Notes: generated by a model not told the origin, from the letters alone. A stretch of DNA of 64,000 nucleotides from Dehalococcoidia bacterium (GCA_021731085.1 JAKFYB010000013.1:88125-152124), one strand, 5' to 3'. Numbered from the stretch's first letter, positions 26,713-60,871 are shown. Numbers and translations are program-made.

Positions 26713-28206
26713 ATGCCGCGCTCGCGGACGACACTGCTTTGGGGGCTCTTCGCGATGGCCGCGATCGCTGCGATCGTTGGCGGCGCGCTGCTGCTCGTGC
26801 GCGCGTTCGACTCATCGACGACGACAACGGGGGCGACACTGCCGCACGACGCGCCACCGGCCGCCATCGACGCGCGCGTGCTCTGCTCGCTGTCGAACGA
26901 CGATGCGCTCGCGGCGCTGGTCACCGGCGCGGACGGCGGCACTTCAGTCGTTGTCGGTAACAAGACGTGGTGGCTGTTCGGCGACACGATCTTTCGTGGA
27001 GATTCCGGCAAGCAGATCGAGGCGAACTCCATCGCCGTATCGACGGAACGCCGCCCGGACGGGTGCCCGCGGCTCGAATACCACGCAGAGAACGGGATTT
27101 CGGTGCCGTTCATCGAGAAGGATGGTTCCCTCACGGTCTGGCCGACGGGCGGCTTCGCGGGCGGCAATGACATGCTCAACGTCTACACCGCCTACGTCTA
27201 CGGCAACGGTCCTTACAGCTATTCGGTCGATGAAGTCGGCGCCGTGCGCCTCGACACTGACACGATGCAGACGGAGGTACTGAACCGGCGGCTCTGGGAC
27301 GAGAACTCCGGTTTTCCCAGCCGCGTCATCCTTGCACAGCCAATCGAGATGGATGAAGGCGACGAACTGCTGCACGTCGTCCTCCACGCACAGGACACAT
27401 CGAAGTACCTCGCGCGCGTTGAGCCGGATCGCTTCGCGGACTCCACCGCGTACGAGTTCTGGGACGGCGCAGGGTGGTCGGAGTCCGCGGCGGATGTCAG
27501 CGCCCTGTGGTCGCTGCCCACCGTCGTCGATCCGGTCGAGCAGCTCCTGAACTTCGAGAACGGGGCGTCGGTGACGTGGAACCCTGCCCTGAACAAGTAC
27601 GTGGCGCTCGTGAATGCCGGCTTCGACGGCATCGGCGCGCGCGTGGCGGATCGGATTGAAGGCCCGTGGTCCGAACCCGTGCGCTGGCTCGACTGCCTGG
27701 CGTTCGCGAACGCCCGCGTGCCGACGTGCTACAGCCCACAGCAACATGCCTCCTACGCCAGCGAAGATGGCCGCCGCATCTACGCCACGATCAGCGCCAT
27801 CGAACCGTACGAGACGCAGTTTGTCGAGATCACGCTCGGCGATGCGATCCACGAATGGCGCGATGGCGACCGCATCATGTACGCACCCGCGGTCTCGAGC
27901 GACCAGTGGGAGGATCAGGGCGTCGCGTTCTATGCATCCGCCGTCGAGCACCCCGGCTTCGTGCCCGTGTTCGAGTGGACACGCGGTGGCGAGTCGCAGT
28001 TCGCACCCGCATCCCCCGCCGACGGCTGGTCTTCGTCGGGTGCCGTCTTCTACGTTACGACGACGGCGCAATCGCAGGACGGCCTCATTCACTACCGCCC
28101 GGTGTACGACTGGGCAAACGGCGACTCACACATCCTTTCGCCACTGGAGACAGGGCTCGAGGAGTATGGATACAAGCGAGGACTTGCTATGTTCTACGCC
28201 CCGTAG
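26713..28206 (+). CDS. DUF4185-domain protein, N-terminally membrane-anchored
   Basis: N-terminal TM (LLWGLFAMAAIAAIVGGALLLV), WWLFGDT motif characteristic of DUF4185. Confidence 0.5.
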   Translation: MPRSRTTLLWGLFAMAAIAAIVGGALLLVRAFDSSTTTTGATLPHDAPPAAIDARVLCSLSNDDALAALVTGADGGTSVVVGNKTWWLFGDTIFRGDSGKQIEANSIAVSTERRPDGCPRLEYHAENGISVPFIEKDGSLTVWPTGGFAGGNDMLNVYTAYVYGNGPYSYSVDEVGAVRLDTDTMQTEVLNRRLWDENSGFPSRVILAQPIEMDEGDELLHVVLHAQDTSKYLARVEPDRFADSTAYEFWDGAGWSESAADVSALWSLPTVVDPVEQLLNFENGASVTWNPALNKYVALVNAGFDGIGARVADRIEGPWSEPVRWLDCLAFANARVPTCYSPQQHASYASEDGRRIYATISAIEPYETQFVEITLGDAIHEWRDGDRIMYAPAVSSDQWEDQGVAFYASAVEHPGFVPVFEWTRGGESQFAPASPADGWSSSGAVFYVTTTAQSQDGLIHYRPVYDWANGDSHILSPLETGLEEYGYKRGLAMFYAP

Positions 28207-28313
28207 TACTTGGCGGCCGCGTGCGGCTGCGCACACCACAGGAAAGAAGGCGCTGCGAGGCTGACGCGACGCCCAGGTCAGGTCATGCGGACAGAAGTCC
28301 GCGGGAGGACGAC

Positions 28314-30977
28314 ATGAACCGGGTATCCACGCTGATCATCGGAGCGCTCTTCGCCATCGCAGCGATCGAGTTCGGCCTGCTGGGCGCGAGCGCGGCGGGG
28401 CTGACTGGCGGCAAGGATGGCGGGCTGCCACCTGTCAGCGAACGGGTGGGCGTCGTCGCCACGCCTACGCCACTACCCGCGCTGGAAATCTCGCTGTCAG
28501 CGCCACCGTACATCGGCTGCAACCCAAATCACGGTGAATTCGTGGACGCGTTTATCACGACGGCGGGAGGCCAAATCGTGGCCGACGGCACAGAGGTTGC
28601 GTTCTCGGTGCTTCCTCAGGGCACCGCCAATCCCGCTATCGCAACGACCGTCGCAGGCACCGCTACCTCGTGGGTTCTCCCTGACGTGCCCAGCGGCGGC
28701 GGCATCACTGTTTTCGCAACGTCCGGCTTCGCGGAGGCATCCGTCTTCATTCCATGTGGGTTTGCGACGCCGACCATGCCGGTCTTCGTAACCGTCACGC
28801 CAACGCCATCACCTACTCCGTGCGACGGACCGTGTCCGCCGACATTCACCGCGACAACAACATGGACGCCTGGCCCTCAGGGGACAAACACGCCCTGTGC
28901 GCTATGCCCGACAGCTACGCCCCCGCCGCTCTCCCCGCCGCCGTGCGATCCGGAGGAGCAGTTCTGTTCGCCGGCCACGCCGGAGCCTCCGCCCTCGCCG
29001 CCTTCGGTCGATGCCACGGGCATCGATATCCGAGCCAACCCGTTAACCATCGAGTGCAATGGCAGCGACCGTTCGGTCGTGACGGTGCGACTATTCGATG
29101 CGAACGGCGATCCTGTGCCGGACGGGACGTGGGTGTACTTCAGCCCGTACAACGGCTATGCCGATCCCTGGTCGGCGCAGACAACAAACGGCTACGCGAA
29201 AACGCAGGTCTCCTTCTACGGCGACATCTTCCCGTACGGTCCTAACCTGATCGTCGAGTCAGGACTGCTGCAAGCGGGCATCCGCATCCGCTGCAATCCG
29301 CAGTCCGATCCAACACCGTACCCGTGCAACCCCTCGCCGGGGAGCGACCCGCTGAGTCCGCCATGCGAACCGGAGCCGCCGTGCTCCGTCTCGCCACCGT
29401 CGGTGAGCCCGCCGTGCGAGGAACCACCGCAATCGCCGCCGACCGCCTTTGAACTCAGGCTGGATTGCGACACGGACACGTTCGGAATTCAGACGTACTG
29501 CTTCGCGTCGCCATCCGTATCCCAGGACGTCGCGGTCGTGATTACGAACCAATCTGGCAGCGGCAGCGAGATAGCTGGATTCAACTTCATACTGAACAAT
29601 GCGGACATCTCGATCATCGAGCCGCTGCCGGGAGTCGATACGACGCCACCGAATCACAACAACAATCCCGACTTCAACGAGGCAGAGATCAGCGCATCGG
29701 GCTGGGAGTGCGGACCGGTCAATCCTGACCAGACTCCCGGCGGTCCGTCAAGTGAGTCGCTGCTGTCGTGCTTCAACGGCCAGGGTTCCGTTTCTATCGC
29801 GGACGGTGCCTCGCTAGTCCTGGGCGTGGTCCATTACCGCACCGGGGTTCATGCAGGATCGACGCCGATCTTCATCGACTTTGCTGCGTTCTACGACTCT
29901 TCATTCCTCGAGTTGGGATCATGCCAGCCGACGATTGAGACCGAGATGAACTGCCACGGCGCAGTCGTTGAAATGCAGCCGCCATCACCGCCAGTCGGGA
30001 CACCTACACCTTCAAACACGGCATTCGAGATGGCGATCGACTGCGATTCCGCAAGTGAGGGTATTCAGAGCGAGTGTACTATCGAGCCCGGTCAGGCCGT
30101 TGACGCGCCGATCGTGGTGACGAACCGCACCTCGATTGACGAGAGGCTCGGCGCTCTTGGCTTCTACCTTGACAATGACGACACGAGCGTGCTCGCACCG
30201 AACGCAAGCGATGGCAACCCGCCAACGGGTCGCGATGGAAACCCGGATTTCAACGAGGGCGGACTCACATCCCCCAACTGGCTTTGCGCGCCGCCAACAC
30301 CGAGTCCCGACGTCACGCCGGGAGGACCGACGAGCGAATCGTTCATTGGCTGCTTCAACGGCTACCCGGCGACGGCACAGCTGATTGCAGCGGGCGAGTC
30401 GATCGTGATCGCGACCGTGCGCTTGACGGCCTCTTCCAATGGCGAAGCACACCTGGCGATTCGCGATGGCAACTTGTACAGCGCGAACTTCGGCGAGCTT
30501 GGTACATGCAACGGGTTCGTCAATATCGCGATGGCTTGTCCTGGCGCAACGATCACCGTCGACTCAGGCCCCACGACAGGCCCGATCACGACGCCGACCA
30601 GCATTGCGACGAACACACCGGTTTCGACCAATACGCCACTGCCGACAAACACCGCGCCGCCAACTCCTACCAACGTGCCAACGCAAACGCCGGCACCGCC
30701 ACCAGCGACACTTGCTCCGCCCAGCCCGACGCGGCCAGCTCGCACAGCGACAACCGTCGCGCGCACCGCCACCGTCGAGCCGACGCGCACACCCTCGCGC
30801 GGCAACCGATGCGCCGACGTGAACGACGACGGACGAGTGACGCGCGCCGACATCCGCGACATCGTGCGGCGTGTGCAGCGCGGGCCGTACATCGCCAAGT
30901 ACGACATCAACCGCAACGGCAGGCTCGGGTCTGGTGACGTGGTTGCGGCGATACGACAGCTCGGCCGCAGGTGCTAG
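28314..30977 (+). CDS. secreted repeat protein with two cohesin-like ~190-aa repeats and a C-terminal dockerin
   Basis: Signal/TM N-terminus, Pro/Thr-rich linkers. Repeats begin TAFELRLDCDTD (~29442) and TAFEMAIDCDSA (~30018). C-terminal duplicated Ca-binding DVNDDGRVTRAD / DINRNGRLGSGD dockerin loops. GGGAGG RBS. Confidence 0.6.
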   Translation: MNRVSTLIIGALFAIAAIEFGLLGASAAGLTGGKDGGLPPVSERVGVVATPTPLPALEISLSAPPYIGCNPNHGEFVDAFITTAGGQIVADGTEVAFSVLPQGTANPAIATTVAGTATSWVLPDVPSGGGITVFATSGFAEASVFIPCGFATPTMPVFVTVTPTPSPTPCDGPCPPTFTATTTWTPGPQGTNTPCALCPTATPPPLSPPPCDPEEQFCSPATPEPPPSPPSVDATGIDIRANPLTIECNGSDRSVVTVRLFDANGDPVPDGTWVYFSPYNGYADPWSAQTTNGYAKTQVSFYGDIFPYGPNLIVESGLLQAGIRIRCNPQSDPTPYPCNPSPGSDPLSPPCEPEPPCSVSPPSVSPPCEEPPQSPPTAFELRLDCDTDTFGIQTYCFASPSVSQDVAVVITNQSGSGSEIAGFNFILNNADISIIEPLPGVDTTPPNHNNNPDFNEAEISASGWECGPVNPDQTPGGPSSESLLSCFNGQGSVSIADGASLVLGVVHYRTGVHAGSTPIFIDFAAFYDSSFLELGSCQPTIETEMNCHGAVVEMQPPSPPVGTPTPSNTAFEMAIDCDSASEGIQSECTIEPGQAVDAPIVVTNRTSIDERLGALGFYLDNDDTSVLAPNASDGNPPTGRDGNPDFNEGGLTSPNWLCAPPTPSPDVTPGGPTSESFIGCFNGYPATAQLIAAGESIVIATVRLTASSNGEAHLAIRDGNLYSANFGELGTCNGFVNIAMACPGATITVDSGPTTGPITTPTSIATNTPVSTNTPLPTNTAPPTPTNVPTQTPAPPPATLAPPSPTRPARTATTVARTATVEPTRTPSRGNRCADVNDDGRVTRADIRDIVRRVQRGPYIAKYDINRNGRLGSGDVVAAIRQLGRRC

Positions 30978-30986
30978 GTACGAACG

Positions 30987-31018
30987 GCGGGGGAGGTCGA
31001 GTTGACCTCCCCCGCGCC
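30987..31018. terminator. GC-rich hairpin (bidirectional terminator candidate) between convergent genes
   Basis: ggcgggggaggtc-gagtt-gacctcccccgc: 12-13 bp perfect stem, 5-nt loop, directly after the cohesin/dockerin gene stop. Confidence 0.5.
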
Positions 31019-43806: not shown

Positions 43807-46800
43807 GTGGGCCTAATCCCCGATCGCCTCGGACCGAAACTGGGCCTCTTCCTCGTAGGAATGTTCGCCGTTCTTGGTGTCGCTACGGCGGCGCTGATCA
43901 TCTTCGGCTTCGAACGTACACGCAACGACGCCACACAGAGCAGCCGCGAGGGCCTCGAACAAGAGGGCCAGCGAACACTCCTGCGTTTTACAACGAGCCA
44001 GGCGGCATACGCCCAGTCACAAATGGAAGCAACGGCGGGCTTCGCGGAACAGGCGTCGTCGTACTTCACAAATGCGCGTGCCAACAGGCCCGCCGATCCG
44101 ATACCCGCGTCCGCACTCTCAACGACAGCGCAGGGCGTGCACTACGACGCCAATCCGGATCGCCAGTCTGATGTTGTCGTGCCGCCGGGAAGCGAACTCA
44201 CTGCGGCCGTGTTGGCCGATGTTGGTTCATCGGCGGTGCTCGATGATCTGTTCCCCACGTTGCTCGCTGGCTTCGGCGGGCAGGCGCGCAGTTCGAACTT
44301 CGAGCCCATCTCCATCTACTTCCAGAGCGTGAACAACGTCGCACGCATCTATCCGCGGGTGCCGGACATCGAAGACCTGCCGCCGGTCGGCGACCAACTC
44401 CGCGCTTCGACGCTCGCCGTCGGGCCGGACGAGAATCCACAGCGCGCGACGCTCTGGAGCCCGCCATACGCAGATGTCAGCGGCAGGGGCACAGTCATGT
44501 CGGCCACTGTGCCCGTGTACGACGGAAGCACGTTCATCGGCGCGATGGGCGTGGATTTTTCGCTGGCGAGGCTCGTCGCCCAGATCGAGGGCATCAAGCC
44601 CACGACGAATGGATTCGCCTTCTACATGGATGAGGGCGGCTCGCTTCTTCCCACGACAGCCCAGCCGCGCATCGAAGCTGAACTGGACGACGCACGAAAC
44701 ACCGAGTTCGCGGCCGTCATTCAGGCAGTCACAGACGGTCGAGCAGAGGTTGGTCGCGCTGAAGTGGACGGGCGCGACATGTTCATCGCCCACGTGCCGC
44801 TCCAAGGCGTCGGTGGAACGCTTGCGTTGGCCGCGCCGGTCGATGAAGTGACGCTGCAAGCGGCAGCAGTGGAGTCGACCATCGAGGACGGAAGCCGCCG
44901 GACGTTGTTCTTCGCGCTTTCCGGCATTGCGCTCGTCTTCCTTTTGACACTTGGTGTCGCCGGTTTGTTGAACCGGCGCCTCGTACTCCAGCCGATTTCG
45001 GAGATCGTGGACGGAACGCGCGCACTTGCTGCGGGCGATCTGTCGCAGGAGATCCCGGTGAGGTCGGGCGACGAGCTAGGCACGCTCGCGGCGTCGTTCA
45101 ACGGCATGACGGGCGTACTCCGCGAACGCACGGACGACTTGCGCGAGCGAGAGGAGCAATACCGCGCCGTCTTCGAGGCGAGCAGCGACGGTTTCGTCAT
45201 CACGCGCATCGACGACGGTGCAGTTGTCGACGTGAATCCGGCGATGTGCTCGATGCATGGCTACACGCGCGAGGAAATGCTGCGCCTCAGTCCCATGCAG
45301 TTCATCCACGAGGACGACCATCACCTCTTTGGAGACTACATGGCGACGGTCGCGGCTGGTGGTGACTATCGCTGCCGGGCGCGCGACGTGCGCAAGGACG
45401 GTTCGCTGTTCCACGTCGACGTCATGGGCACCCCGGTGACGTACAGGGGCACACGTCACATCCTCGGCATGGTGCGAGACATCACTGCGCAGGTCGAGAC
45501 AGAGCGCATTCTCGAAGAGCGCGTGGAGGATCGCACGAGCGAACTGGCGGCGTTGCTGCAGGTTTCGCAGTCTGTGGCGGCAGCATTGGATAGCAAGAGC
45601 GTCGCCTCGGCGATCCTGACTGAGCTGGCGAAGGTGAGTGACTACGCGGGCGCCACGCTGGCGATAGTCGAAGGCGACGATCTCGTGATCGTCGACTCAT
45701 GGGGACCGTTCCGGGAGGAAGTTGTAGGCGGCCCGACATCGCGGGTCCCACGGAGCGCGATTCCCGTTGAATTCTGGGACGCGATGGAGCAAGCCGCGCC
45801 CCTCGTTGTGGATGACGTGCGGGGAGATTCAGTGCTCGCCCAAACGTACAGGCGCGTGTTTCGGCCATTCCTGGAGTTGCCGTCGTTTGCGTACATCCGG
45901 TCATGGATAGCAGTGCCCCTCGTCCGACAGGGTCGCATCGCCGGCATGTTGACCGCATCTCACGGCCAAGCAGGACACTTCACTGAAGAGAACACTCGGC
46001 TGATTCTGGCCGCGGCGAGTCAGGCAGCCGTCGCGATGGAAAACGCGCGCCTTTTCGAGCAGACGCACGAACGTACTGGCGAGCTTCAGATTCTTGTCGA
46101 TGTCGCGCAGCAGCTTTCCTCGACGATCGAACTGGATCCACTACTCGCGGTTGTACTCGACCAAGTGCAAAAAGTGGCGGAGTACGACCGCGTGTCCGTG
46201 CTACTGGCGGACGAAGAAGGGACCTTGCAGGTTCATACCACGCTGCGGCGTGCCGGTGACGAGAATCTGGGCGCGCCGCCGGGAGCCAAGTTCCCGCGTT
46301 CGACGGGACCGCTGTTCTGGGCGACGTTCGAACGCGGGCAGGCGGTCGTGATCGAAGACGTCCGTGCGGATACGCCGCTCGCTGCGGAGTATCGCAGCGC
46401 TGCGGCGCCACAGACTGATGCGACGCTCGCTGCGACGCGTTCCTGGATGGGCGTGCCCATGCTTGCGAATGACCGTCTGATCGGCATTCTGGCACTAACG
46501 AGCAGCGTGGTGTCGGCATACACGGAGAGGCAAGGCCAGCTCGCGACGGCGATCGCCAGCCAAGCAGCCGTCGCAATCGAGAACGCACGCCTATTCAGTG
46601 AAGCGGAGGAACGAACGCGCGAGCTCTCGACGCTGCTCGATGTTTCGAGAAACGTCGCCTCAACGATTGAACTAGAACCCCTGCTGAACCTGATCCTCGA
46701 TCAGGTCAAGGTAGTCGCACCGTTCTATCGCTCGGCGTTCATGGTGCTTGATGGCGATGACCTGGAGGTCGTCGCTGTCGGCACGCGTCAGGGCGCCGAA

Positions 46801-49800
46801 GATCCTTCCTACGTGAACCAGCTGGGCGTTCGCGTGCAGGCAGTCGGCTCGCCGATCTGGCAGCGCATGGACGCCGGTACACCATTCGTGATCGATGATA
46901 TCCACGGAGACTCACCTGAAGCGATCGGCTACCGGATGGCGGTTGGCGCTGATGCCGATACAACGTTCGCGAACATGCGGGGGTGGATGGGCGTGCCGAT
47001 CATGTTGAAGGATCGCGCCATCGGCATGTTGGCGCTCGGCAGCGACCAGCCGAACTTCTACACAGAGCAGCATGCACGACTCGCGCGGGCCGTCACCGAT
47101 CAGGCGGCCGTCGCAATCGAGAACGCTAGGCTGTTCGAGCAAACAGGTCATCAGCACCGCGAATCTGCGGCACTGCTCCAAATCTCGAACAGCCTGACCT
47201 CGACGCTGGACCTGGAACAGCTCGTTCACGTGATCCTGGAACAGTTGCATAGTGTCGTCGAGTACACGGGGTCGTCCGTGACTATCGTGAGCGGCGGCCA
47301 GCTGGAGGTCCTTGCATCGCGTGTGCTCGATCCGCCCAACACGCCCAACATTCGTGGAGCGCGGTTCAACCTGGATCAGGATTCAGAGACATGGCGAGCC
47401 TTTCGTCGCCTGGAGACTGTCGTCATCAGCGATATCTACGACGACACGACATTCGCGAAGGAGTATCGCGGTACCGTCGGGCGCCAGACGCTGCAGACTC
47501 CAACATTCGGGAGCATCAGGTCGTGGATGGCGGTGCCGCTCGCGATCAAGGGGGAGGTTATCGGCATGCTGTCGCTCTCCCGCAACGAGATCGGCTATTT
47601 CACGCCGGAACATACGCGTGTCGCTTCGGCCGTGGGTAAGCAGGCGGCCCTCGCGATCGAAAATGCACGGCTCTATCAGCACGCGGCTGAACGCACCGAA
47701 GAACTGTCGACGCTCCTCGACGTTTCGAGCGCCGTAGCATCAACGATTGAGTTGCAGCCGCTGTTGGACGTGATCCTGGAGCAGATTCATCGCGTCGCGT
47801 CGTACGACGGCGCAACGTTCTTCATCCTGCACGGCGACAGGCTGCGTGCGGAGTCCTTCGTCACACAGGACGACCCGAACATCGACCTCACGACGATCGG
47901 CCTCGAGATTCCGGTCGCCGGCTCCCAACTGTGGGACATGGCATCGCACGGTGAGACGATGATCATCGATGATATCTACGCCGACACACCAACAGCGGCA
48001 GCTTTTCGGGCGATCGCCGGGCCCGCGCTCAAGACGCGATTCCAGCGCATTAAGTCGTGGCTCGGTATTCCGCTGATGCGTGGCGGAAAGCCGATCGGCC
48101 TGTTGGCTCTCTCCGGCCACACCCAGGGAGTGTTCGACGTCACGGATGCTCGTCTCGCGCGAGCCGTCGCAGATCGCGCCGCACTCGCGATTGAGAACGC
48201 GAGGCTCTTTACCGAAGCGTCAGATCGCACGCGCGAGCTTTCGGCGCTTCTGGACATCTCGAAGGGGATTGCGTCAACGCTGGATCGCGGACCCCTGGTC
48301 GGGGCGATTCTCGACCAGTTGAAGGAACTCGTCGACAACAACGGAGCATCCATCATGCTGCGCAATGGCGACGTTCTTGAGATCGTGGACTACGACCGAT
48401 CCGTGCCTCGAAATGCCGCGAGCGTGCAGATTCCAGCGAGCTTCCCCATTGCGAACATGGCGCCGTTGTGGGCTTCCATGCTCGCCGGAGACAGCGTGAC
48501 CGTGAGGGACATGCAAGCGAACGATGGCGCGCGTGATGTCTTCCGGCAGGCCGTCGGCGAGAGCCTGCTGACTGGCGCCCTGAGTCACGTACGAGCGATG
48601 CTCGCTGTGCCACTTATCGTCCACGACGACGTCATAGGTACGCTCACGATCTCCAACCAAGTCCCAGGGTTCTTCACGGAGGAACATGCGCGGGTGGCGC
48701 GTGCCGTCGCCGACCAGGCAGCGCTCGCCCTCGAGAACGCCCGGCTGTACGAGGAGACGAGCCGGCGAGCACGCGAGACCGAAGCACTACTACGCGCCGA
48801 TGCTGAGCTGTTCCGGTCGTTGAGCCTCGATGACGTCTTTCAGGCGCTGTGCGATGTCGCGGTCGATGTGCTTGGTGTCAGCAAGTGCATGGTGACAACG
48901 ATCCACGACACCACCGGGCGCTACACGACGCGTGCCTCCCGAGGCGTGTCGCAGACGGCGCTCGCGCAAATGGCCCGGGTCCGTGACCGGCAACCGCGCG
49001 TCGTGCTGGGGTCTATGACCACGCCAATCGTCACGCCGGACGCACGGGCGGCGCTTCCAGAGATGGCTGGCATTTTCGAGATGGAGGGCATCATCTCGAC
49101 AATGGACGTACCGATCAGGATCGAAGGCCAGGTGCGCGGAGACTTTGCGCTGGCGTACACACGGCGCCACCAACCCGGAGCCGACGAGCAACGGCTGTTT
49201 CAAGCGCTTGCCGACCGCGCGGCAATCGCGATCCAGAACGCCGAGCTGTACGAACGCTCGCAGCAGGTGGCGTCGCTCGAGGAGCGCCAGCGGCTGGCAC
49301 GCGAACTGCACGACTCCGTATCGCAGGCGTTGTACGGCATCGCACTCGGGGCACGTACGGCGCGTACGCAACTCGACCGCGATCCGGTGAAGGCAGTCGA
49401 GCCGGTGGAGTACGTGCTCCAGCTAGCGGAGGCGGGGTTGGCCGAAATGCGCGCGCTGATCTTCGAACTGCGGCCTGAGTCGCTGCAGACGGAGGGCCTG
49501 GTGGCGGCGATCGAGAAGCATGTGGCGTCAACAAAGGCGCGCTATGGCCTGGAGGTTAATGCACAACTGGGCGTCGAGCCCGACGTCCGTCTCGACGTGA
49601 AAGAGGCGCTCTATCGCGTGACGCAGGAAGCGTTGCACAACATTGTGAAGCACGCGCAGGCGCGCCACGTCGATGTGCGGCTGGCTACAGCACATGGGGA
49701 CATCACGCTGGAGGTAAGCGACGACGGTCGTGGGTTCGACCCACAGGGTTCGTATCCCGGTCACGTCGGCTTACACTCCATGCGGGAACGCGTCGAGAAG

Positions 49801-49881
49801 CTGCACGGCACGATCGGCATCGAAAGCGCGCCCGGCGCGGGATCCAAGGTGAAGGTGCGCATTCCACTCAACGGTGTTTAG
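43807..49881 (+). CDS. giant sensor histidine kinase: 2 TM + extracytoplasmic sensor, HAMP, PAS, ~9 GAF domains, HisKA_3 + HATPase_c
   Basis: 2024 aa. TM helices near 43840 and 44900. HAMP (GDLSQEIPVRSGDELGTLAASFNGM). PAS (EQYRAVFEASSDGFVI). Iterated GAF modules each ending ..AIENARLF/Y..RTxELS.LLDVS. C-terminal NarL-type kinase core (ERQRLARELHDSVSQAL). Confidence 0.85.
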   Translation: MGLIPDRLGPKLGLFLVGMFAVLGVATAALIIFGFERTRNDATQSSREGLEQEGQRTLLRFTTSQAAYAQSQMEATAGFAEQASSYFTNARANRPADPIPASALSTTAQGVHYDANPDRQSDVVVPPGSELTAAVLADVGSSAVLDDLFPTLLAGFGGQARSSNFEPISIYFQSVNNVARIYPRVPDIEDLPPVGDQLRASTLAVGPDENPQRATLWSPPYADVSGRGTVMSATVPVYDGSTFIGAMGVDFSLARLVAQIEGIKPTTNGFAFYMDEGGSLLPTTAQPRIEAELDDARNTEFAAVIQAVTDGRAEVGRAEVDGRDMFIAHVPLQGVGGTLALAAPVDEVTLQAAAVESTIEDGSRRTLFFALSGIALVFLLTLGVAGLLNRRLVLQPISEIVDGTRALAAGDLSQEIPVRSGDELGTLAASFNGMTGVLRERTDDLREREEQYRAVFEASSDGFVITRIDDGAVVDVNPAMCSMHGYTREEMLRLSPMQFIHEDDHHLFGDYMATVAAGGDYRCRARDVRKDGSLFHVDVMGTPVTYRGTRHILGMVRDITAQVETERILEERVEDRTSELAALLQVSQSVAAALDSKSVASAILTELAKVSDYAGATLAIVEGDDLVIVDSWGPFREEVVGGPTSRVPRSAIPVEFWDAMEQAAPLVVDDVRGDSVLAQTYRRVFRPFLELPSFAYIRSWIAVPLVRQGRIAGMLTASHGQAGHFTEENTRLILAAASQAAVAMENARLFEQTHERTGELQILVDVAQQLSSTIELDPLLAVVLDQVQKVAEYDRVSVLLADEEGTLQVHTTLRRAGDENLGAPPGAKFPRSTGPLFWATFERGQAVVIEDVRADTPLAAEYRSAAAPQTDATLAATRSWMGVPMLANDRLIGILALTSSVVSAYTERQGQLATAIASQAAVAIENARLFSEAEERTRELSTLLDVSRNVASTIELEPLLNLILDQVKVVAPFYRSAFMVLDGDDLEVVAVGTRQGAEDPSYVNQLGVRVQAVGSPIWQRMDAGTPFVIDDIHGDSPEAIGYRMAVGADADTTFANMRGWMGVPIMLKDRAIGMLALGSDQPNFYTEQHARLARAVTDQAAVAIENARLFEQTGHQHRESAALLQISNSLTSTLDLEQLVHVILEQLHSVVEYTGSSVTIVSGGQLEVLASRVLDPPNTPNIRGARFNLDQDSETWRAFRRLETVVISDIYDDTTFAKEYRGTVGRQTLQTPTFGSIRSWMAVPLAIKGEVIGMLSLSRNEIGYFTPEHTRVASAVGKQAALAIENARLYQHAAERTEELSTLLDVSSAVASTIELQPLLDVILEQIHRVASYDGATFFILHGDRLRAESFVTQDDPNIDLTTIGLEIPVAGSQLWDMASHGETMIIDDIYADTPTAAAFRAIAGPALKTRFQRIKSWLGIPLMRGGKPIGLLALSGHTQGVFDVTDARLARAVADRAALAIENARLFTEASDRTRELSALLDISKGIASTLDRGPLVGAILDQLKELVDNNGASIMLRNGDVLEIVDYDRSVPRNAASVQIPASFPIANMAPLWASMLAGDSVTVRDMQANDGARDVFRQAVGESLLTGALSHVRAMLAVPLIVHDDVIGTLTISNQVPGFFTEEHARVARAVADQAALALENARLYEETSRRARETEALLRADAELFRSLSLDDVFQALCDVAVDVLGVSKCMVTTIHDTTGRYTTRASRGVSQTALAQMARVRDRQPRVVLGSMTTPIVTPDARAALPEMAGIFEMEGIISTMDVPIRIEGQVRGDFALAYTRRHQPGADEQRLFQALADRAAIAIQNAELYERSQQVASLEERQRLARELHDSVSQALYGIALGARTARTQLDRDPVKAVEPVEYVLQLAEAGLAEMRALIFELRPESLQTEGLVAAIEKHVASTKARYGLEVNAQLGVEPDVRLDVKEALYRVTQEALHNIVKHAQARHVDVRLATAHGDITLEVSDDGRGFDPQGSYPGHVGLHSMRERVEKLHGTIGIESAPGAGSKVKVRIPLNGV

Positions 49882-49884
49882 CGG

Positions 49885-52200
49885 CTAGAGACCGAACATC
49901 CAGAGCGCGCGAGACAGCGCCGCGCCGCGTGTGTGGTCGAACCAGAGGCGTGGCGGCGTCATCGCGATGCGTGCGCGCCACGTTGACACCAGACTGCTCA
50001 GAAGTGAAGGAACGGCGACAGACGCTGGGCGCTCTGGCGCAGCCACCGGCGGAAGGCCGACCACGGGAGGCGCCGTATCAAGCGCGGGGTCCGGTTCGGC
50101 ACGCACATCGCCTGACGGTACCCCACCGTGTGAGGATGATTTGTTATCGACGGGTGGACCCGGGATGACGGCGACGGGTGGATCTTCTGGTGAAGCTCCG
50201 ACTTCGGGCCTGAACGTCGCTACATACACCGTGCTTGAGGTTGGCGTCGTGATCGTGTGCGTTTGGGCGCCGCCGTCAGACCACGACTGGAACGTCCACG
50301 GAACGAACGCGTAGGTCTGTGGTGAGGACGTCCCGATACTGCGCTGCATGCCATGCACGCTGCTAAAGGTGTACGGCGACGTAAACGGCTGGCCATCGAC
50401 CGTCATCTGCAGGCCACCTCGGTTCGCGCCGACGGTGATCTGCGACACGCGCGGGACAATGTCGCGCTGCATAACGTGCGTCATGTTGCCCGAGTCGCGA
50501 ACCGTGAGATAGATGCGGTACGAGACGTTCGTCGCCGTCTCGCCCGATGTTGGTATGACGAAGGAACCTGTTTTGGAGCCAGTCGTTGCGGCGACGAACG
50601 GATGCGTGTGCGAGGCGTGATGGAAGTCGACCTGCCAGGTGAACGCCGACGCAGGCAGCGTTCCATCCTGCGTGTCGGTACCGGTGCCTGAGAAGTTGAT
50701 CGTCGTACCGGCAGCGTACGTCGTGCCAGCCGTCGGCGCCGTGATTGATGCTACTGGAGCCGTGTTCGCGGTGACGGTCAGTGTCGCGGAGTTGCTGGTC
50801 GCCGTGCCAAAGCTATTCGTCGCGCGACAACGGAAGGTCGCGCCGTTGTCGCCTGTGGTTGTGGCAGAAATCGTATACGTGGTCGACGTCGCGCCGGTGA
50901 TGTTCGAGCCATTGCGCTGCCACTGATACGCAATGGTCGCGGCGCCGCTCGCTGCGCACGAGAATGACGCCGGTTGTCCGGCAGTGACGGTCGTGCTCGC
51001 CGGATGCTGCGTGATCGTAGGCGCCTGGCTGGCGGTGTAGTAGATACGACGAACGCCACCGCCCGACCGATAGAGGTAATACAGACTGCCGTCGCTCGAC
51101 ACCTGAAGATCGACGGGGGATCCGGCGTCTGTTGCGAAGCCGGCCGCCGTGTTCGTAGCCGGGTCGTACGTACGTATCCACGACGAGCAGTAGTCGGCGA
51201 AGAAGTACTTGCCGGTGTAGGTCGCAGGAAACTGCGCCGTCGGTGGATTGTAGAACGCGCCACCGGTGATCGCGCACCCGTTGACGGTGCCGCTGTGGCC
51301 GTAGACGTGCAGCGGACCGCGGAACTCCGGATCAGACGTCGCTCCTTCGGTGTCGGGCCAGCCGTAGTTAGATCCTGCGAGACCGTCGTTGATCTCTTCC
51401 CAGGCGCTCTGGCCGACGTCGTTGATGAACATGCGGCCCGTTCCCGGCTGGAACGCGAACGTAAACGGGTTGCGGAGGCCATACGCCCAGATCATGCGGT
51501 CGTTGCCGCTCAGGTCGCCGTAGTACGGATTGTCGGTTGGGATGGTGCCGTCCTTGTTGAGACGCAGCATCTTGCCATGCAGCGTGTCGAGCGCCTGGGC
51601 GTTCGCACCGTTAGCATTGTCACCGACAGCGACGTAGAGCTTGCCATCGGAGCCAAAGTGAATGGCGCCGCCGTTGTGGTTCGTCGCGCCGCTGAGCGTA
51701 TCGAGATTCAGGATCTGCACTTCCGAGCCACCAACAGCCACGTCTCCGTTCGCGGTGAATCGACTGATCCTGTTGCGCAGCGGCGCTCCTGACGTCGTGT
51801 AGTACAGGTAGACGTAGTTGTTCGACGCAAAACTTGGGTCGAACGCGATTCCGAGCAGGCCGCGCTCGCCAGACGAGTTCACGGACAGCGTCACAAACGG
51901 CGTAGCGAGCAGTGCGCCATTCTTGATCACACGCAGCGCACCTGTCTGCTCTGCGACAAACAGCCGGCCATCCGGCGCGAAGGCCATTGCCGTCGGGCTC
52001 GACATGCCAGATGCGATCGTCTGCTCAGCGAAGCCTGAGGGAAGCGTGGCCGCGATGCCGATGACGCCTTCGTCGGTATCCGGCTCACCGGCCGCGGTGC
52101 GGGAGGTGCTTGCCGAAAGGAGAACCAGGACGGTCATCGCAAGGATGCCGATGCGCAGTGTGTGTCGGCGAAGCGACTCTGCGGCTCGCGTCTGCGCCAT
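49885..52200 (-). CDS. secreted PQQ-dependent sugar dehydrogenase-like beta-propeller protein with Ig-like/PKD-like C-terminal domains
   Basis: GLLGIAFDP, YVYLYYT, HNGGAIHFGSDGKLYVAVGD, GLRNPF motifs of the soluble aldose dehydrogenase (YliI/SGDH) family. Ig-like module (TITQHPASTTVTAGQPASFSC..YQWQRNG). Start ATG 52200 with GGGGGAG RBS, then a signal peptide. Confidence 0.7.
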   Translation of the reverse strand: MAQTRAAESLRRHTLRIGILAMTVLVLLSASTSRTAAGEPDTDEGVIGIAATLPSGFAEQTIASGMSSPTAMAFAPDGRLFVAEQTGALRVIKNGALLATPFVTLSVNSSGERGLLGIAFDPSFASNNYVYLYYTTSGAPLRNRISRFTANGDVAVGGSEVQILNLDTLSGATNHNGGAIHFGSDGKLYVAVGDNANGANAQALDTLHGKMLRLNKDGTIPTDNPYYGDLSGNDRMIWAYGLRNPFTFAFQPGTGRMFINDVGQSAWEEINDGLAGSNYGWPDTEGATSDPEFRGPLHVYGHSGTVNGCAITGGAFYNPPTAQFPATYTGKYFFADYCSSWIRTYDPATNTAAGFATDAGSPVDLQVSSDGSLYYLYRSGGGVRRIYYTASQAPTITQHPASTTVTAGQPASFSCAASGAATIAYQWQRNGSNITGATSTTYTISATTTGDNGATFRCRATNSFGTATSNSATLTVTANTAPVASITAPTAGTTYAAGTTINFSGTGTDTQDGTLPASAFTWQVDFHHASHTHPFVAATTGSKTGSFVIPTSGETATNVSYRIYLTVRDSGNMTHVMQRDIVPRVSQITVGANRGGLQMTVDGQPFTSPYTFSSVHGMQRSIGTSSPQTYAFVPWTFQSWSDGGAQTHTITTPTSSTVYVATFRPEVGASPEDPPVAVIPGPPVDNKSSSHGGVPSGDVRAEPDPALDTAPPVVGLPPVAAPERPASVAVPSLLSSLVSTWRARIAMTPPRLWFDHTRGAALSRALWMFGL

Positions 52201-52404
52201 ACTCCCCCATCCGACGATCCGCCCACGCCGTGTGCGCGAGCCGAAAGACGAGCAACTCATCCGGATGCCCCAAAACCCTCCTCTAGCTATCGGCCGTGCG
52301 TGTCTCTTCCGTAGACTGGCAGGACGGGAGCAGTTGCCGCCAACTACGCTCAGATTCGTGCGCAGAATCCCTGATTTCAGATTTGCAGGCAGAGGAGTAG
52401 GATC

Positions 52405-52767
52405 ATGTCCGGCTTCGACCCGAACTCGAACCACTGCTACATCACCACGATCGGGCGCATCACCGGAAAACCGCACACCGTCGAAATCTGGTTCGCGGCG
52501 GTCGATGACACGCTGTATGTGCTCGCAGGCAGCGGTGAACGCGCAGACTTCGTGCGCAATGCTCGCAAGACGCCCGAAGTGACCGTCCGTGTTGGTGAGA
52601 GGGCAGCCATGGAGCGCAACGCAACTGCCCGCGTCGTCACCAAGCAGACGGAAGAAGCCCTCGCTCGTCGGTTATTGCTGGCGAAGTACGCCTCACACAG
52701 CGATCTGGATGAGTGGGGGAGGACGGCGCTGCCCGTTGCATTCGATCTTGCGAACGCGCATCTGTGA
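52405..52767 (+). CDS. deazaflavin (F420H2)-dependent nitroreductase-family protein (DUF385)
   Basis: 120 aa; ..ITTIGRITGKPHTVEIWF.. split-barrel; GAGGAG RBS. Confidence 0.55.
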   Translation: MSGFDPNSNHCYITTIGRITGKPHTVEIWFAAVDDTLYVLAGSGERADFVRNARKTPEVTVRVGERAAMERNATARVVTKQTEEALARRLLLAKYASHSDLDEWGRTALPVAFDLANAHL

Positions 52768-57244: not shown

Positions 57245-57321
57245 ATGGTCGGGGCGACAGGATTCGAACCTGCGACCTCCTGACCCCCAGTCAGGTGCGC
57301 TACCGGGCTGCGCCACACCCC
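57245..57321 (-). tRNA. tRNA-Pro (anticodon GGG)
   Basis: 77-nt cloverleaf on the minus strand: acceptor CGGGGTG/CGCCCCG, T-loop TTCGAAT, anticodon stem CCTGA/TCAGG with loop CTGGGGG (U33, GGG, G37), encoded CCA. Confidence 0.85.
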
Positions 57322-57322
57322 G
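57283..57322. repeat. attL-side 40-bp direct repeat (tRNA-Pro 5' half through anticodon loop)
   Basis: cccccagtcaggtgcgctaccgggctgcgccacaccccga, identical to 63890..63929. Confidence 0.9.
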
Positions 57323-58399: not shown

Positions 58400-60871
58400 A
58401 TGCCTGAGATTGGTTTGCAAACCGCGCTAGAAATGATCGTCCAGTCCCACGATTCGGGCCGAAGGCATTGCTTCGTTGTGGGTTCGGGCCTCTCAGCTCC
58501 TATCGTTCCCGGAGCGCGCACGATTATCGATGAGTGTGGGCGGAGGGCACCGGTTTCCGACGAGACCACAATTCCGAGCGACCCGATGGAGCAATACTCC
58601 TTCTGGATGCGCAGGGCATTTCCAAGTCCCGCCTTGCGCGGGGAATACCTCGCTGAACTCATCCGTGGAAAGCCCATCTCGGCTGCTAACCTTCGACTCG
58701 CGCACCTTGTCACTGGATCCGACTTCGGCAGAATCGTGATCACGCCAAACTTCGACGACTTTTTCACGCGCGCCGTCGCGCTATTCGGGGGCCAGCCAAT
58801 TGTGTGTGACCATCCCTTCACCACGGGACGGGTTTCAATGGCCTTGTCGTCGACAGAGATTCAAGTAGTTCATGTGCACGGGACCCATTGGTTCTACGAC
58901 GCGTGCAACCTCGACCATGAAATCGTAGCTCGCGGGACTTGGGACGCCCAGACTCCGACCATGCTCGACCTTCTGCAAAACATCTTCCGGGAGCGTGCTC
59001 CTCTTGTCATAGGTTACAGCGGGTGGGAAAGTGACGTCGTCATGAAAGCCCTACGACACCAACTCAGCGTCAGGGGTTTCCCGGACAACTGTTACTGGTT
59101 CTGTCACAATCGAGATGACCGCGCCCGCCTTCCAGATTGGCTAACGAGCGATCCGAATGTTTATCTGGTACTGCCCGATAGAGAGGTTTCGAAGTCCTCC
59201 CGAACTGACTCTTCTCTTCCACCAGCAGCAGCAGCTACAGCTCCAGCGGCCCTAGTCGACGGGTCAGGTGGAGAGTCTGTTGACGAAGACGAGTCAGCTT
59301 CCTCGGTGCTCGACGATGTCGACTCCGGAGCCAAGCCGACACTAAGCGCTCAGGCAGTGTTGGATGGACTGCTACAGAGTCTCTCTGTACCGATTCCTCG
59401 GTTGCTCGACGATCCGATCGCCGCCTTAGCAGACCGGCTGGCGAATGAACTAGCGCCCTCCGAGTCGCCGATCGACGACCTATATCGAATTTCATCCGTC
59501 GTTGAGAAGATCCGATCGGCGGCGGCGTGCTATGACCAGCCCGGCGGCGACTCCGACCCACTGGAGCCAATACGAGCCTCGCTCAGGAGTCTCGACTACT
59601 CAGGCGTGATTCAATCGATTTCGAACCTCGAACGCAACGATCTAACCCAAGAACAAAAGAGGGAGATTGTCGAGATAGCCCTCGCTGCCAGCAGGGCAAT
59701 TTCGGGCCCTTCTGAAAGCGAGTTACCCGGCTATGATCTCGTGGTCTCCTACGGCGATGAGATCGCCAAAGACGATCCGACGGTTCAAGACCGCGTTGCT
59801 ACCGCCATTTACCTGAAAGGCCTGGCGTTGTCTTTGTTGGATCGTGACGACGAAGCACTCCAGACACTTGATGATTTCCTAGAACGCTACAGCACCGTCC
59901 CGGCTCAGGCCCGTTCCACAGCCGTCGCAATGAACGTAAAGGCGGGTATTGTTCAGTCACTAGGTGAACCCGAGGAGGCGCTGCGTATCGTCGATGACAT
60001 CGTCGAGCGCTTCGGGGGTACGTCCGACCCGGGTGTGCTTGCCCACGTCGCCCACGCCATGAGCGCCCGAGCCCGCTATCTCGGCTCGAACCAACTGGAT
60101 CAGGCACTAGAGGCCTTTGCCGCATTGGACGAGCGTTTCGGCTCGTCGGAAGAAACGGAAATACGGATTGAGGTCGCCCGTGCTCTCGTCGCAAAGGCCT
60201 ACTTACTTTCATCCTCTGGACAGCTAGAAAGCGCGATCGAAGTCTGTGACCGTGTAATCGCGGACTTTTCACAGGATCGAGACGAAAAATTGCGCGCTGC
60301 GGTTGCAACGGCGGGATATCGAAAAGGAGCAAGCCTCGGAGGCCTATCCCGCAATGAGGAGGCCGTCGCCGCGTACGAGTGGGTCATTACCCATTTTGGC
60401 GAGGACACGAACGAAGAAATCGTCGAGAGTGTAGCCGCTGCACTCTTTGGCAAGGCGTATCGCCTTAGTCGCCTCAAAAAATCCGAGGCTGCAGTCGAAA
60501 CCTACGACGAACTCGTGGACCGCTATGGCGAGACATCTGACGAGACCATTCTCGTGATTGTCTCCAAAGCACTTGGTAACAAGGGGAGCCAGCTCCAGAA
60601 GCTTGGCGACGAGGAGGCGGCTCTCGATTCATACGGCCTTGTGGTCGAGCGCTTTCTGAATAGCGCACACAGCAATTTGCGCAGTCACGCGGCAAAGATT
60701 TCAAATCGCCGGGCTGCATTACTGAACAAGATGGGGCGCCCGCTGGAGGCGGCCACGCAATACAGTCTGGTCGCCAACTTGGATGAGGACAGATCCCCCA
60801 GAACGATGAAGGCCGAGATTGCTAAAGCGCGCTTGGAGCTGGAAGAAATCGACAGCGCTGACGAAGAGTGA
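58400..60871 (+). CDS. SIR2-domain protein with C-terminal TPR-like helical repeats (DSR-like candidate anti-phage protein)
   Basis: N-terminal SIR2-like motifs FVVGSGLS, ITPNFDDFF (catalytic Asn), VVHVHGTHW (His). Acidic linker. ~7 degenerate ~40-aa helical repeats (..EEAL..YD.VV.RFG..D..I..VA.AL..KG..). No P-loop. 27 bp after int. Confidence 0.65.
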   Translation: MPEIGLQTALEMIVQSHDSGRRHCFVVGSGLSAPIVPGARTIIDECGRRAPVSDETTIPSDPMEQYSFWMRRAFPSPALRGEYLAELIRGKPISAANLRLAHLVTGSDFGRIVITPNFDDFFTRAVALFGGQPIVCDHPFTTGRVSMALSSTEIQVVHVHGTHWFYDACNLDHEIVARGTWDAQTPTMLDLLQNIFRERAPLVIGYSGWESDVVMKALRHQLSVRGFPDNCYWFCHNRDDRARLPDWLTSDPNVYLVLPDREVSKSSRTDSSLPPAAAATAPAALVDGSGGESVDEDESASSVLDDVDSGAKPTLSAQAVLDGLLQSLSVPIPRLLDDPIAALADRLANELAPSESPIDDLYRISSVVEKIRSAAACYDQPGGDSDPLEPIRASLRSLDYSGVIQSISNLERNDLTQEQKREIVEIALAASRAISGPSESELPGYDLVVSYGDEIAKDDPTVQDRVATAIYLKGLALSLLDRDDEALQTLDDFLERYSTVPAQARSTAVAMNVKAGIVQSLGEPEEALRIVDDIVERFGGTSDPGVLAHVAHAMSARARYLGSNQLDQALEAFAALDERFGSSEETEIRIEVARALVAKAYLLSSSGQLESAIEVCDRVIADFSQDRDEKLRAAVATAGYRKGASLGGLSRNEEAVAAYEWVITHFGEDTNEEIVESVAAALFGKAYRLSRLKKSEAAVETYDELVDRYGETSDETILVIVSKALGNKGSQLQKLGDEEAALDSYGLVVERFLNSAHSNLRSHAAKISNRRAALLNKMGRPLEAATQYSLVANLDEDRSPRTMKAEIAKARLELEEIDSADEE

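Follow-up and report, generated by a model that had tools for sequence, protein, structure and literature searches.

Can a protein that carries both cohesin-like repeats and its own dockerin act as a scaffold outside the classical cellulosome? Few non-covalent protein connectors are known to be stronger than cohesin–dockerin pairs, which have found wide use in synthetic biology. The question is raised by a 64,000-nucleotide stretch of DNA from a Dehalococcoidia bacterium (GCA_021731085.1 JAKFYB010000013.1:88125-152124), here called the window. The source is a Chloroflexota bacterium from soil or groundwater. Gene A of this locus encodes a DUF4185 protein. The adjacent gene B encodes an 887-amino-acid (aa) protein, which a preliminary description of the DNA read as a secreted protein with two cohesin-like repeats and a C-terminal dockerin. 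Sequence profiles and predicted structures lead us to regard gene B, with fair though not high confidence, as a scaffoldin-like surface protein that belongs to a cohesin–dockerin system of the non-cellulosomal kind, with an uncultured, Dehalococcoidia-type member of the Chloroflexota as its host.

The gene B repeats have a predicted cohesin fold

The two repeats share 36% identity over their full length (BLASTP E value, 2e-38), so the duplication is real and not a chance resemblance. The preliminary description had quoted the strings TAFELRLDCD and TAFEMAIDCD, which we located at residues 377 and 569, but each repeat is about 180 aa long, and not about 190 aa as it had stated. The HMMER comparison with Pfam Cohesin that had been suggested as a check gave no direct match. 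Scans of the repeats against Pfam and NCBIfam found no Cohesin match for gene B at E values up to 1.

We aligned 32 repeat copies from gene B homologues (alignment A1) and used this alignment to model repeat 1 with AlphaFold (AF2). The model is all-beta, with a pLDDT of 93.3 and a pTM of 0.89. When the model was compared with the Protein Data Bank (PDB) in Foldseek, the matches ranked 1 to 22 were all cohesins (probability, 1.0; E values, 1e-8 to 1e-6). They include 3kcp, 1g1k, 6kgf, 2vn5, and the non-cellulosomal A. fulgidus cohesin 2xdh, and the cellulosomal ones among them cover types I, II, and III. The TM score normalized to the target was 0.6 to 0.76. Structure prediction therefore points to a cohesin fold, and the unrelated Ig/CARDB-like fold that had been named as the other outcome was not seen.

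Bridging sequences point in the same direction. The A1 profile matches protein P0068 over residues 43 to 214 with an E value of 3e-45, and on Pfam Cohesin residues 58 to 191 of P0068 reach 37.4 bits, against a cut-off of 24.1 bits. P0150 reaches 64.2 bits on Pfam Cohesin. These two were the matches among 16 members of the repeat family that were scanned individually, and one of 97 matched when they were scanned as a set. Four paralogues (P0020, P0021, P0023, and P0024) have the N-terminal layout of gene B and carry another domain at the position of the repeats. That domain gives weak Pfam Cohesin matches, with a best E value of 7e-4, and we aligned it as A5. The predicted fold and the bridging homologues above the Pfam threshold thus bear out the cohesin-like nature of the repeats and support their assignment to a divergent cohesin subfamily that is absent from current family libraries.

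The C-terminal domain is a predicted dockerin with a putative disulfide clasp

The C terminus of gene B contains two 12-residue loops, DVNDDGRVTRAD at residue 835 and DINRNGRLGSGD at residue 864. Both loops retain D1, N3, D/N5, and D12, and D9, D20, D38, and D49 are invariant in the dockerin alignment A3. In the HMMER comparison with Pfam Dockerin_1, which had also been suggested, the gene B copy has an E value of 0.001 and its 19.7 bits are under the cut-off of 22.9 bits. However, the aligned orthologues and paralogues score 24 to 44 bits, and the orthologues among them 34 to 44 bits.

The AF2 model of residues 827 to 887 has a pLDDT of 92, with helices at model residues 18 to 30 and 47 to 55, one after each loop. 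Its PDB matches at ranks 1 to 28 were all dockerins, with TM scores of 0.6 to 0.76 and a root mean square deviation (rmsd) of 1.6 to 3.5 Å. The E values of these matches are modest, at 0.04 or above, because the domain has only 61 residues. Weak matches to EF-hand families in Pfam overlap this C terminus, and calmodulin-type EF-hands superimposed on the model with an rmsd of about 10 Å and a probability below 0.1. The loop chemistry, the orthologue scores, and the fold matches agree with the earlier view of this domain as a canonical duplicated calcium-binding dockerin, and the loop-helix geometry of the F-hand was found where that view had placed it.

The dockerin is bracketed by two cysteines, C833 and C887, which are invariant in the family (alignments A2 and A3); C887 is the last residue of gene B. 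C833 is at position -1 of the first loop, the same spot as the clasp Trp of R. flavefaciens ScaA (PMC3821032), and C887 corresponds to the clasp partner close to the C terminus. In that dockerin, an N-to-C-terminal 'clasp' stabilizes the fold and cohesin binding (PMC3821032). By analogy, we infer that Cys833 and Cys887 may form a covalent disulfide clasp. A limited literature search found no paper on disulfide-clasped dockerins or on Dehalococcoidia dockerins.

The repeats define a six-cysteine subfamily

An HMMER search with the A1 profile covered 1.84 billion cluster representatives (clusters at 50% identity). It returned 517 proteins at an E value of ≤1e-3, 345 at ≤1e-10, and 130 at ≤1e-30, with one to four repeat copies per protein. 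Pfam and NCBIfam leave this subfamily, which comprises at least 517 clusters at 50% identity, unannotated. All six cysteines are present in 165 of the 176 full-length repeat copies, and an Asn-Pro-Asp (NPD) motif is present in 144 of them. The NPD motif, which is invariant in A1, and two of the six invariant cysteines are located in an insertion at about residues 60 to 105 of the repeat. Cys 1 and Cys 2 are lost jointly in four of the 176 copies, which suggests that they form a C1-C2 disulfide (C385-C396 in gene B). The remaining pairs, by adjacency, would be C3-C4 and C5-C6; the pairs predicted for gene B include C466-C486 and C537-C547.

Dockerins accompany these repeats widely. A dockerin-type loop is found in the last 90 residues of 81 of 157 repeat-bearing proteins. 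Among 97 further representatives, the commonest companion domain was Dockerin_1 (32 proteins), followed by TSP3 calcium-binding repeats.

Gene B has two Ig-like domains and cysteine-rich linkers

Gene B was described as having one N-terminal domain. The domain is present, but it is in fact a pair of Big_1/invasin-like Ig domains. The second of these matches Pfam Invasin_D3 (E value, 1e-4) and Big_1 (E value, 5e-4), both below the cut-off, and the PDB invasin structure 5n40 (E value, 6e-4). Ahead of the pair, residues 3 to 31 are unusually conserved among homologues (AIEFGLLGAxAAG; alignment A2). This segment could act as a signal peptide, cut at an Ala-Ser-Ala site, or stay in place as an anchor.

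The linkers have the Pro/Thr/Ser-rich composition that was noted earlier, but that account was incomplete, as they are rich in cysteine too. Gene B has 28 cysteines in total, in even-numbered sets in each segment, and 10 of the 28 are in linkers. Such even sets fit a fully disulfide-bonded extracellular protein. The linker 2 motif YPCNPSPGSxPLSPPC...SPPSVSPPC is kept across homologues (A2), so the linkers are not free to evolve. This conserved Cys/Pro motif might give rise to small disulfide knots or link one chain to another. By comparison with cellulosomal linkers, we also take the Pro/Thr linkers to be plausible O-glycosylation sites.

Gene A encodes a membrane-anchored GH183-like protein

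Gene A matches Pfam DUF4185 at 70.7 bits (cut-off, 39.5; E value, 1.6e-19) over profile positions 10 to 305 of 309. By a Kyte-Doolittle window of ≥1.6, the gene A and gene B proteins have one hydrophobic segment each, at the N terminus. The membrane-anchored DUF4185 protein of the preliminary description is thus confirmed. Reading the sequence directly, we saw no Ala-x-Ala or other signal-peptidase-like site after residues 5 to 34 of gene A. Therefore, its N terminus is likely an uncleaved signal-anchor.

In CAZy, DUF4185 corresponds to family GH183. In this family, catalysis uses an Asp nucleophile and an Asp acid/base that are 17 to 18 residues apart, such as D33/D51 in EndoMA1 and D39/D56 in Rv3707c (PMC10115798; PMC10509167). 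Gene A resembles the GH183 endo-D-arabinofuranases (Rv3707c, DgGH4185a/b, and Microbacterium EndoMA1) in scoring above the Pfam DUF4185 cut-off and in having an invariant 'FGD' Asp near the start of the domain, as is the nucleophile of these enzymes (PMC10115798, PMC10509167). Furthermore, a profile built from alignment A4, which joins gene A to six orthologues, matches the structure of the endo-alpha-D-arabinanase EndoMA1 (PDB 8hhv/8ic1) with an E value of 1.8e-6; a phmmer search retrieved no GH183 structure. D91 is invariant in WWLFGDT (A4), and the motif looks like that of the GH183 nucleophile.

Gene A differs from these enzymes in four ways. First, no Asp follows D91 at a distance of 17 to 18 residues, where A108 and V109 are found instead; D97 and the invariant E103 are nearby candidates for the second catalytic residue (A4). 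Second, the match of the A4 profile to 8hhv is restricted to the C-terminal blades and leaves the N-terminal catalytic region uncovered. Third, gene A is membrane anchored and comes from the Chloroflexota. Fourth, it is paired with a cohesin–dockerin gene.

The C-terminal extension of gene A contains 'FYA / YRPVYDW' motifs (GVAFYAS..., YRPVYDW..., and MFYAP) and has only a weak DUF5648 match (E value, 0.0035), below the cut-off. We read it as a possible small module of the carbohydrate-binding or lectin-like kind. Two orthologous DUF4185 proteins (L001:5094-7934 and L003:4974-7907) are longer, at 946 to 977 aa. In them, DUF4185 is fused to a polytopic membrane domain of about 450 residues with sub-threshold PMT_2/PMT/DUF6541 (GT-C glycosyltransferase-like) matches. 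Synthesis of a surface glycan may be coupled with its trimming, as this fusion of GT-C-like and GH183-like parts hints.

The pairing of gene A and gene B is conserved

Gene A and gene B are on the same strand, 107 nucleotides (nt) apart, and an AGGA-type ribosome-binding site lies upstream of each start. We gathered related genome loci by a profile search of genome contigs with A2. The window and these loci share the order YbjQ - SRPBCC - SprT-like - HAD - DUF4185 - cohesin/dockerin - ... - ChsH2-OB. The DUF4185 gene is immediately upstream of the cohesin/dockerin gene in six of seven distinct loci and is missing in L010 only. L009 has other upstream neighbors and a 4-nt overlap of the two genes; in L008, the DUF4185 gene has a partner with the other cohesin type. 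This conserved pairing, which includes L009 and L008, supports an operon of gene A and gene B.

All named homologues, and 15 of 16 related genome loci, are from Dehalococcoidia or Chloroflexota metagenome-assembled genomes (MAGs). The exception, L026, is a gammaproteobacterial MAG (CAYHXX010000003.1) that matches through its Cys-clasped dockerin only. The protein concerned (L026:6276-7307) is 343 aa long, resembles an SGNH/GDSL-type hydrolase by eye, and ends in a Cys-bracketed dockerin (VCADVNGDGKVNSTD...FNRRC). The putative Cys-clasped dockerin therefore extends beyond the Chloroflexota.

Such a dockerin is found at the C terminus of several further proteins from related MAGs. A candidate cargo of the cohesin–dockerin system among them is a 2,118-aa protein of a Dehalococcoidia MAG (L013:52-6408; JBBDXE010000032.1), which combines long beta-helix (PMP-like) repeats with an alpha/beta-hydrolase (lipase/LCAT-like) region and an RCC1 repeat. 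Others are a Laminin_G_3 lectin-like protein and several cohesin-like plus dockerin combinations. The dockerin-bearing proteins of the related MAGs are thus lipase-like, lectin-like, or cohesin-like, with no cellulases among them.

Layout of the locus and other features of the window

An open reading frame (ORF) check reproduced the coordinates and frames of both genes as first described; the features of the locus are listed in Table 1. A hairpin follows gene B and had been labeled a GC-rich terminator. The hairpin itself is borne out, as the 66-nt stretch around it folds at -33.7 kcal/mol (z = -3.45 versus shuffles). However, the terminator label is not, because the hairpin has no U-tract and was not called by a consensus terminator scan. 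It may still end transcription in this genome of 63% G+C.

Table 1. Coordinates of features in the gene A–gene B locus, counted from the first nucleotide of the window
Feature	Coordinates	Strand	Evidence
Gene A, 497-aa membrane-anchored DUF4185 (GH183-like) protein	26713..28206	+	ORF; ATG at 26713, stop ending at 28206
Gene A N-terminal hydrophobic segment, residues 5-34	26725..26814	+	Sole Kyte-Doolittle window ≥1.6
DUF4185 domain, residues 68-368, invariant WWLFGD91T motif	26914..27816	+	Pfam envelope; invariant columns in A4
Gene A C-terminal extension of ~130 aa, residues 369-497, repeated aromatic motifs	27817..28203	+	Kept in all 7 orthologues
Gene B, 887-aa surface protein, two cohesin-like modules and dockerin	28314..30977	+	ORF, TAG at 30975-30977; homologue family
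Gene B signal peptide or membrane anchor, residues 3-31	28320..28406	+	Single hydrophobic segment; many invariant columns in A2
Ig-like domain 1, residues 57-150	28482..28763	+	35% identity to Ig-like domain 2 (E value, 9e-7)
Pro/Thr/Cys-rich linker 1, 6 Cys	28764..29006	+	Composition; Cys positions
Ig-like domain 2, residues 232-329, Big_1/invasin D3-like	29007..29300	+	Sub-threshold Pfam matches; PDB invasin
Pro/Cys-rich linker 2, residues 330-375, 4 Cys	29301..29438	+	A2 consensus; Cys positions
Cohesin-like module 1, residues 376-556, six-Cys/NPD subtype	29439..29981	+	AF2; Foldseek; alignment A1
Cohesin-like module 2, residues 568-751	30015..30566	+	Identity to module 1; same six Cys and NPD motif
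Pro/Thr-rich linker 3, residues 752-832	30567..30809	+	Pro+Thr+Ser fraction, 0.66
C-terminal dockerin, residues 833-887, bracketed by invariant Cys833/Cys887	30810..30974	+	Pfam; AF2; fold matches
Perfect 12-bp G+C-rich hairpin between convergent genes	30987..31015	.	Fold energy; 10 nt past gene B stop

The neighbors of gene A and gene B are housekeeping genes. Farther away, the window encodes a 2,024-aa sensor histidine kinase with dCache, HAMP, PAS, seven GAF, HisKA_3, and HATPase_c domains (43807-49881, plus strand). A gene on the minus strand (49885-52476) encodes 863 aa, in which a glucose/sorbosone dehydrogenase (GSDH) beta-propeller precedes an Ig domain; its product is probably secreted too. 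An 823-aa SIR2_2 and TPR protein (58400-60871, plus strand) adjoins tRNA-Pro(GGG) (57246-57322, minus strand). The G+C fraction falls from about 0.64 to about 0.58 in this region, which could be an island with a defence-type gene.

Comparison with known cohesin–dockerin systems

The presence of cohesins and a dockerin on one polypeptide was at first taken to be unusual, but it is the standard design of scaffoldins and adaptors (PMC12484212). It is also familiar outside cellulosomes. In PMC9012536 (citing Bayer 1999, Haimovitz 2008, and Peer 2009), cohesins and dockerins are already recognized in archaea and many bacteria, and specific binding of archaeal cohesin-dockerin pairs is reported as experimentally verified.

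Gene B is like the cellulosome scaffoldins C. thermocellum CipA, A. cellulolyticus ScaA/ScaB, and R. flavefaciens ScaA in having several cohesins, one C-terminal dockerin, and Pro/Thr-rich linkers (PMC12484212). It also shares with them a dockerin that has two calcium-binding loop-helix repeats and an N-to-C 'clasp' position (PMC12484212, PMC3821032), and the predicted folds match. However, a Pfam scan of gene B gave no match to a CBM, SLH, X-module, or sortase (LPXTG) signal, and no dockerin-tagged glycoside hydrolase was seen in the window or among the dockerin-bearing proteins of the related MAGs. The gene B cohesins have six cysteines and an NPD insertion of about 40 residues and are undetected by Pfam Cohesin. 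The clasp would be a covalent disulfide rather than a stacking or ionic contact. Gene B also differs in its N-terminal hydrophobic anchor, its Ig-like domains, and its host, a Chloroflexota MAG. We considered a cellulosome and rejected it, as gene B has neither a CBM nor an SLH domain and none of the dockerin-bearing proteins seen in the window or the related MAGs is a cellulase.

A parallel is also seen with A. fulgidus (Archaeoglobus fulgidus; PDB 2xdh) and the ANME archaeal proteins, which likewise have cohesin/dockerin modules in organisms that do not degrade cellulose (PMC9012536). The 2xdh cohesin is at rank 12 in the fold search with the repeat, although the identity is only about 10%. 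In contrast to the archaeal systems, the gene B family is bacterial and Cys-rich, with up to four cohesin modules and a conserved DUF4185 pairing. Gene B belongs with the non-cellulosomal cohesin/dockerin proteins. Its distinct points are a cohesin subtype that is rich in disulfides and bears an insertion, a dockerin clasped by Cys, the lineage, and the conserved GH183-like partner.

A proposed model and its alternatives

We suggest that gene B is exported and is either anchored by its N terminus or released. Its dockerin would fold around two Ca2+ ions and be locked by the Cys833-Cys887 disulfide. It would then plug into a cohesin of another chain, either a second copy of gene B, to give head-to-tail chains, or another cohesin-bearing surface protein. 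The two cohesin modules of gene B would capture dockerin-tagged proteins, such as the lipase-like/beta-helix giant, the lectin-like protein, and the cohesin–dockerin proteins found in relatives. On a cell that has none of the usual cellulosome anchors, this would build an extracellular network hardened by disulfides. Gene B might bind itself and so form chains, or bind other proteins only, as in hierarchical scaffolding.

The product of gene A, which is predicted to be co-operonic with gene B, would probably work alongside this network instead of being docked to it. A Pfam scan found no dockerin in gene A, and so gene A probably acts on a layer-associated glycan. Its substrate would most likely be a furanoside-containing surface glycan or the glycans on the Pro/Thr linkers. 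The Chloroflexota are not known to make D-arabinan.

Several observations weigh against a working cohesin–dockerin scaffold. Pfam Cohesin is silent on all 32 repeat copies of A1, even at E values up to 10, and a PDB sequence-profile search with A1 finds no cohesin, only a chance-level match to YncM (E value, 0.87). A comparison of A1 with A5 by hhalign was not significant (probability, 4%; 29 columns) and was not used as evidence. When normalized to the query, the TM scores of the repeat 1 model against cohesins are only 0.5 to 0.62, because the repeat exceeds a cohesin in length by about 40 residues, and the inserted segment could change or block the sheet to which dockerins bind. The dockerin of gene B itself falls short of the Pfam cut-off (19.7 versus 22.9 bits), and positions 5 and 9 of its second loop are occupied by Asn and Gly. 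No further dockerin or cohesin-like repeat was found within the 64-kb window. The DUF4185 protein has no dockerin, so docking does not explain the operon link. Finally, the pairing of the two genes is confined to one syntenic lineage, and part of it could therefore reflect shared ancestry.

One alternative is that the repeats keep the cohesin fold and do not bind dockerins. They would then be structural, adhesive, or glycan-binding beta-sandwiches, and the dockerin would tether gene B to a canonical cohesin elsewhere or be a calcium-binding stabilizer. We consider this unlikely, though the most probable of the alternatives. The repeat is so diverged that both Pfam Cohesin and the PDB sequence profile miss it; the large insertion, the invariant NPD, and the extra disulfides make a new surface, perhaps for another ligand; and the same genomes hold more canonical, A5-type cohesin-like domains that are possible true receptors for the dockerin. 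However, the repeat co-occurs strongly with dockerins over hundreds of clusters, it stands where proteins of otherwise identical architecture have the Pfam-like cohesin domain, and its top fold matches are all dockerin-binding cohesins.

The scaffold reading can also be extended. Gene B-like proteins across the Chloroflexota might self-assemble into disulfide-hardened, head-to-tail polymers that form an outer protein layer or matrix, with a glycan coat that is built and trimmed by the GH183-like partner, to which some relatives have fused a GT-C-type glycosyltransferase-like domain. This extension is speculative, and we think it improbable.

Less probable again, to the point of being a poor bet, is that the dockerin folds back onto a cohesin module of its own chain, so that gene B would be an auto-inhibited or 'capped' monomeric surface spacer with no network. 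The flexible Pro/Thr linker of about 80 residues between module 2 and the dockerin is long enough for this, and most family members have cohesin and dockerin on one chain. However, known scaffoldins with both modules escape self-binding through different specificities (PMC12484212), and family members with one to four cohesin modules keep a single dockerin, which fits intermolecular use better.

A false analogy, in which the repeats are unrelated Ig/CARDB-type beta-sandwiches and the C terminus is a generic EF-hand pair, could draw on the missing direct Pfam Cohesin match, the weak EF-hand matches, and a few integrin and glycosidase beta-sandwiches at fold ranks 23, 41, and 42, but it is very improbable and largely refuted by the cohesins and dockerins that fill the top of both fold searches, by the bridging homologues and orthologues that exceed the Cohesin and Dockerin_1 cut-offs, and by the poor fit of EF-hands to the dockerin model.

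Implications

The locus is unlikely to surprise a cellulosome specialist. It does expose a sizeable unannotated cohesin subfamily with extra disulfides and a dockerin that is apparently covalently clasped, and this helps annotation. The GH183-like pairing broadens the context of a glycosidase family hitherto linked to mycobacterial D-arabinan. If the gene B cohesins and dockerins bind, they would provide new, orthogonal, and possibly sturdier connector modules. Cell-surface organization in the poorly known, uncultured Dehalococcoidia-type Chloroflexota would likewise gain a first entry point for study. And if the self-assembly reading is true, gene B would be part of a cell envelope based on cohesin–dockerin contacts, and not of an enzyme-display device.

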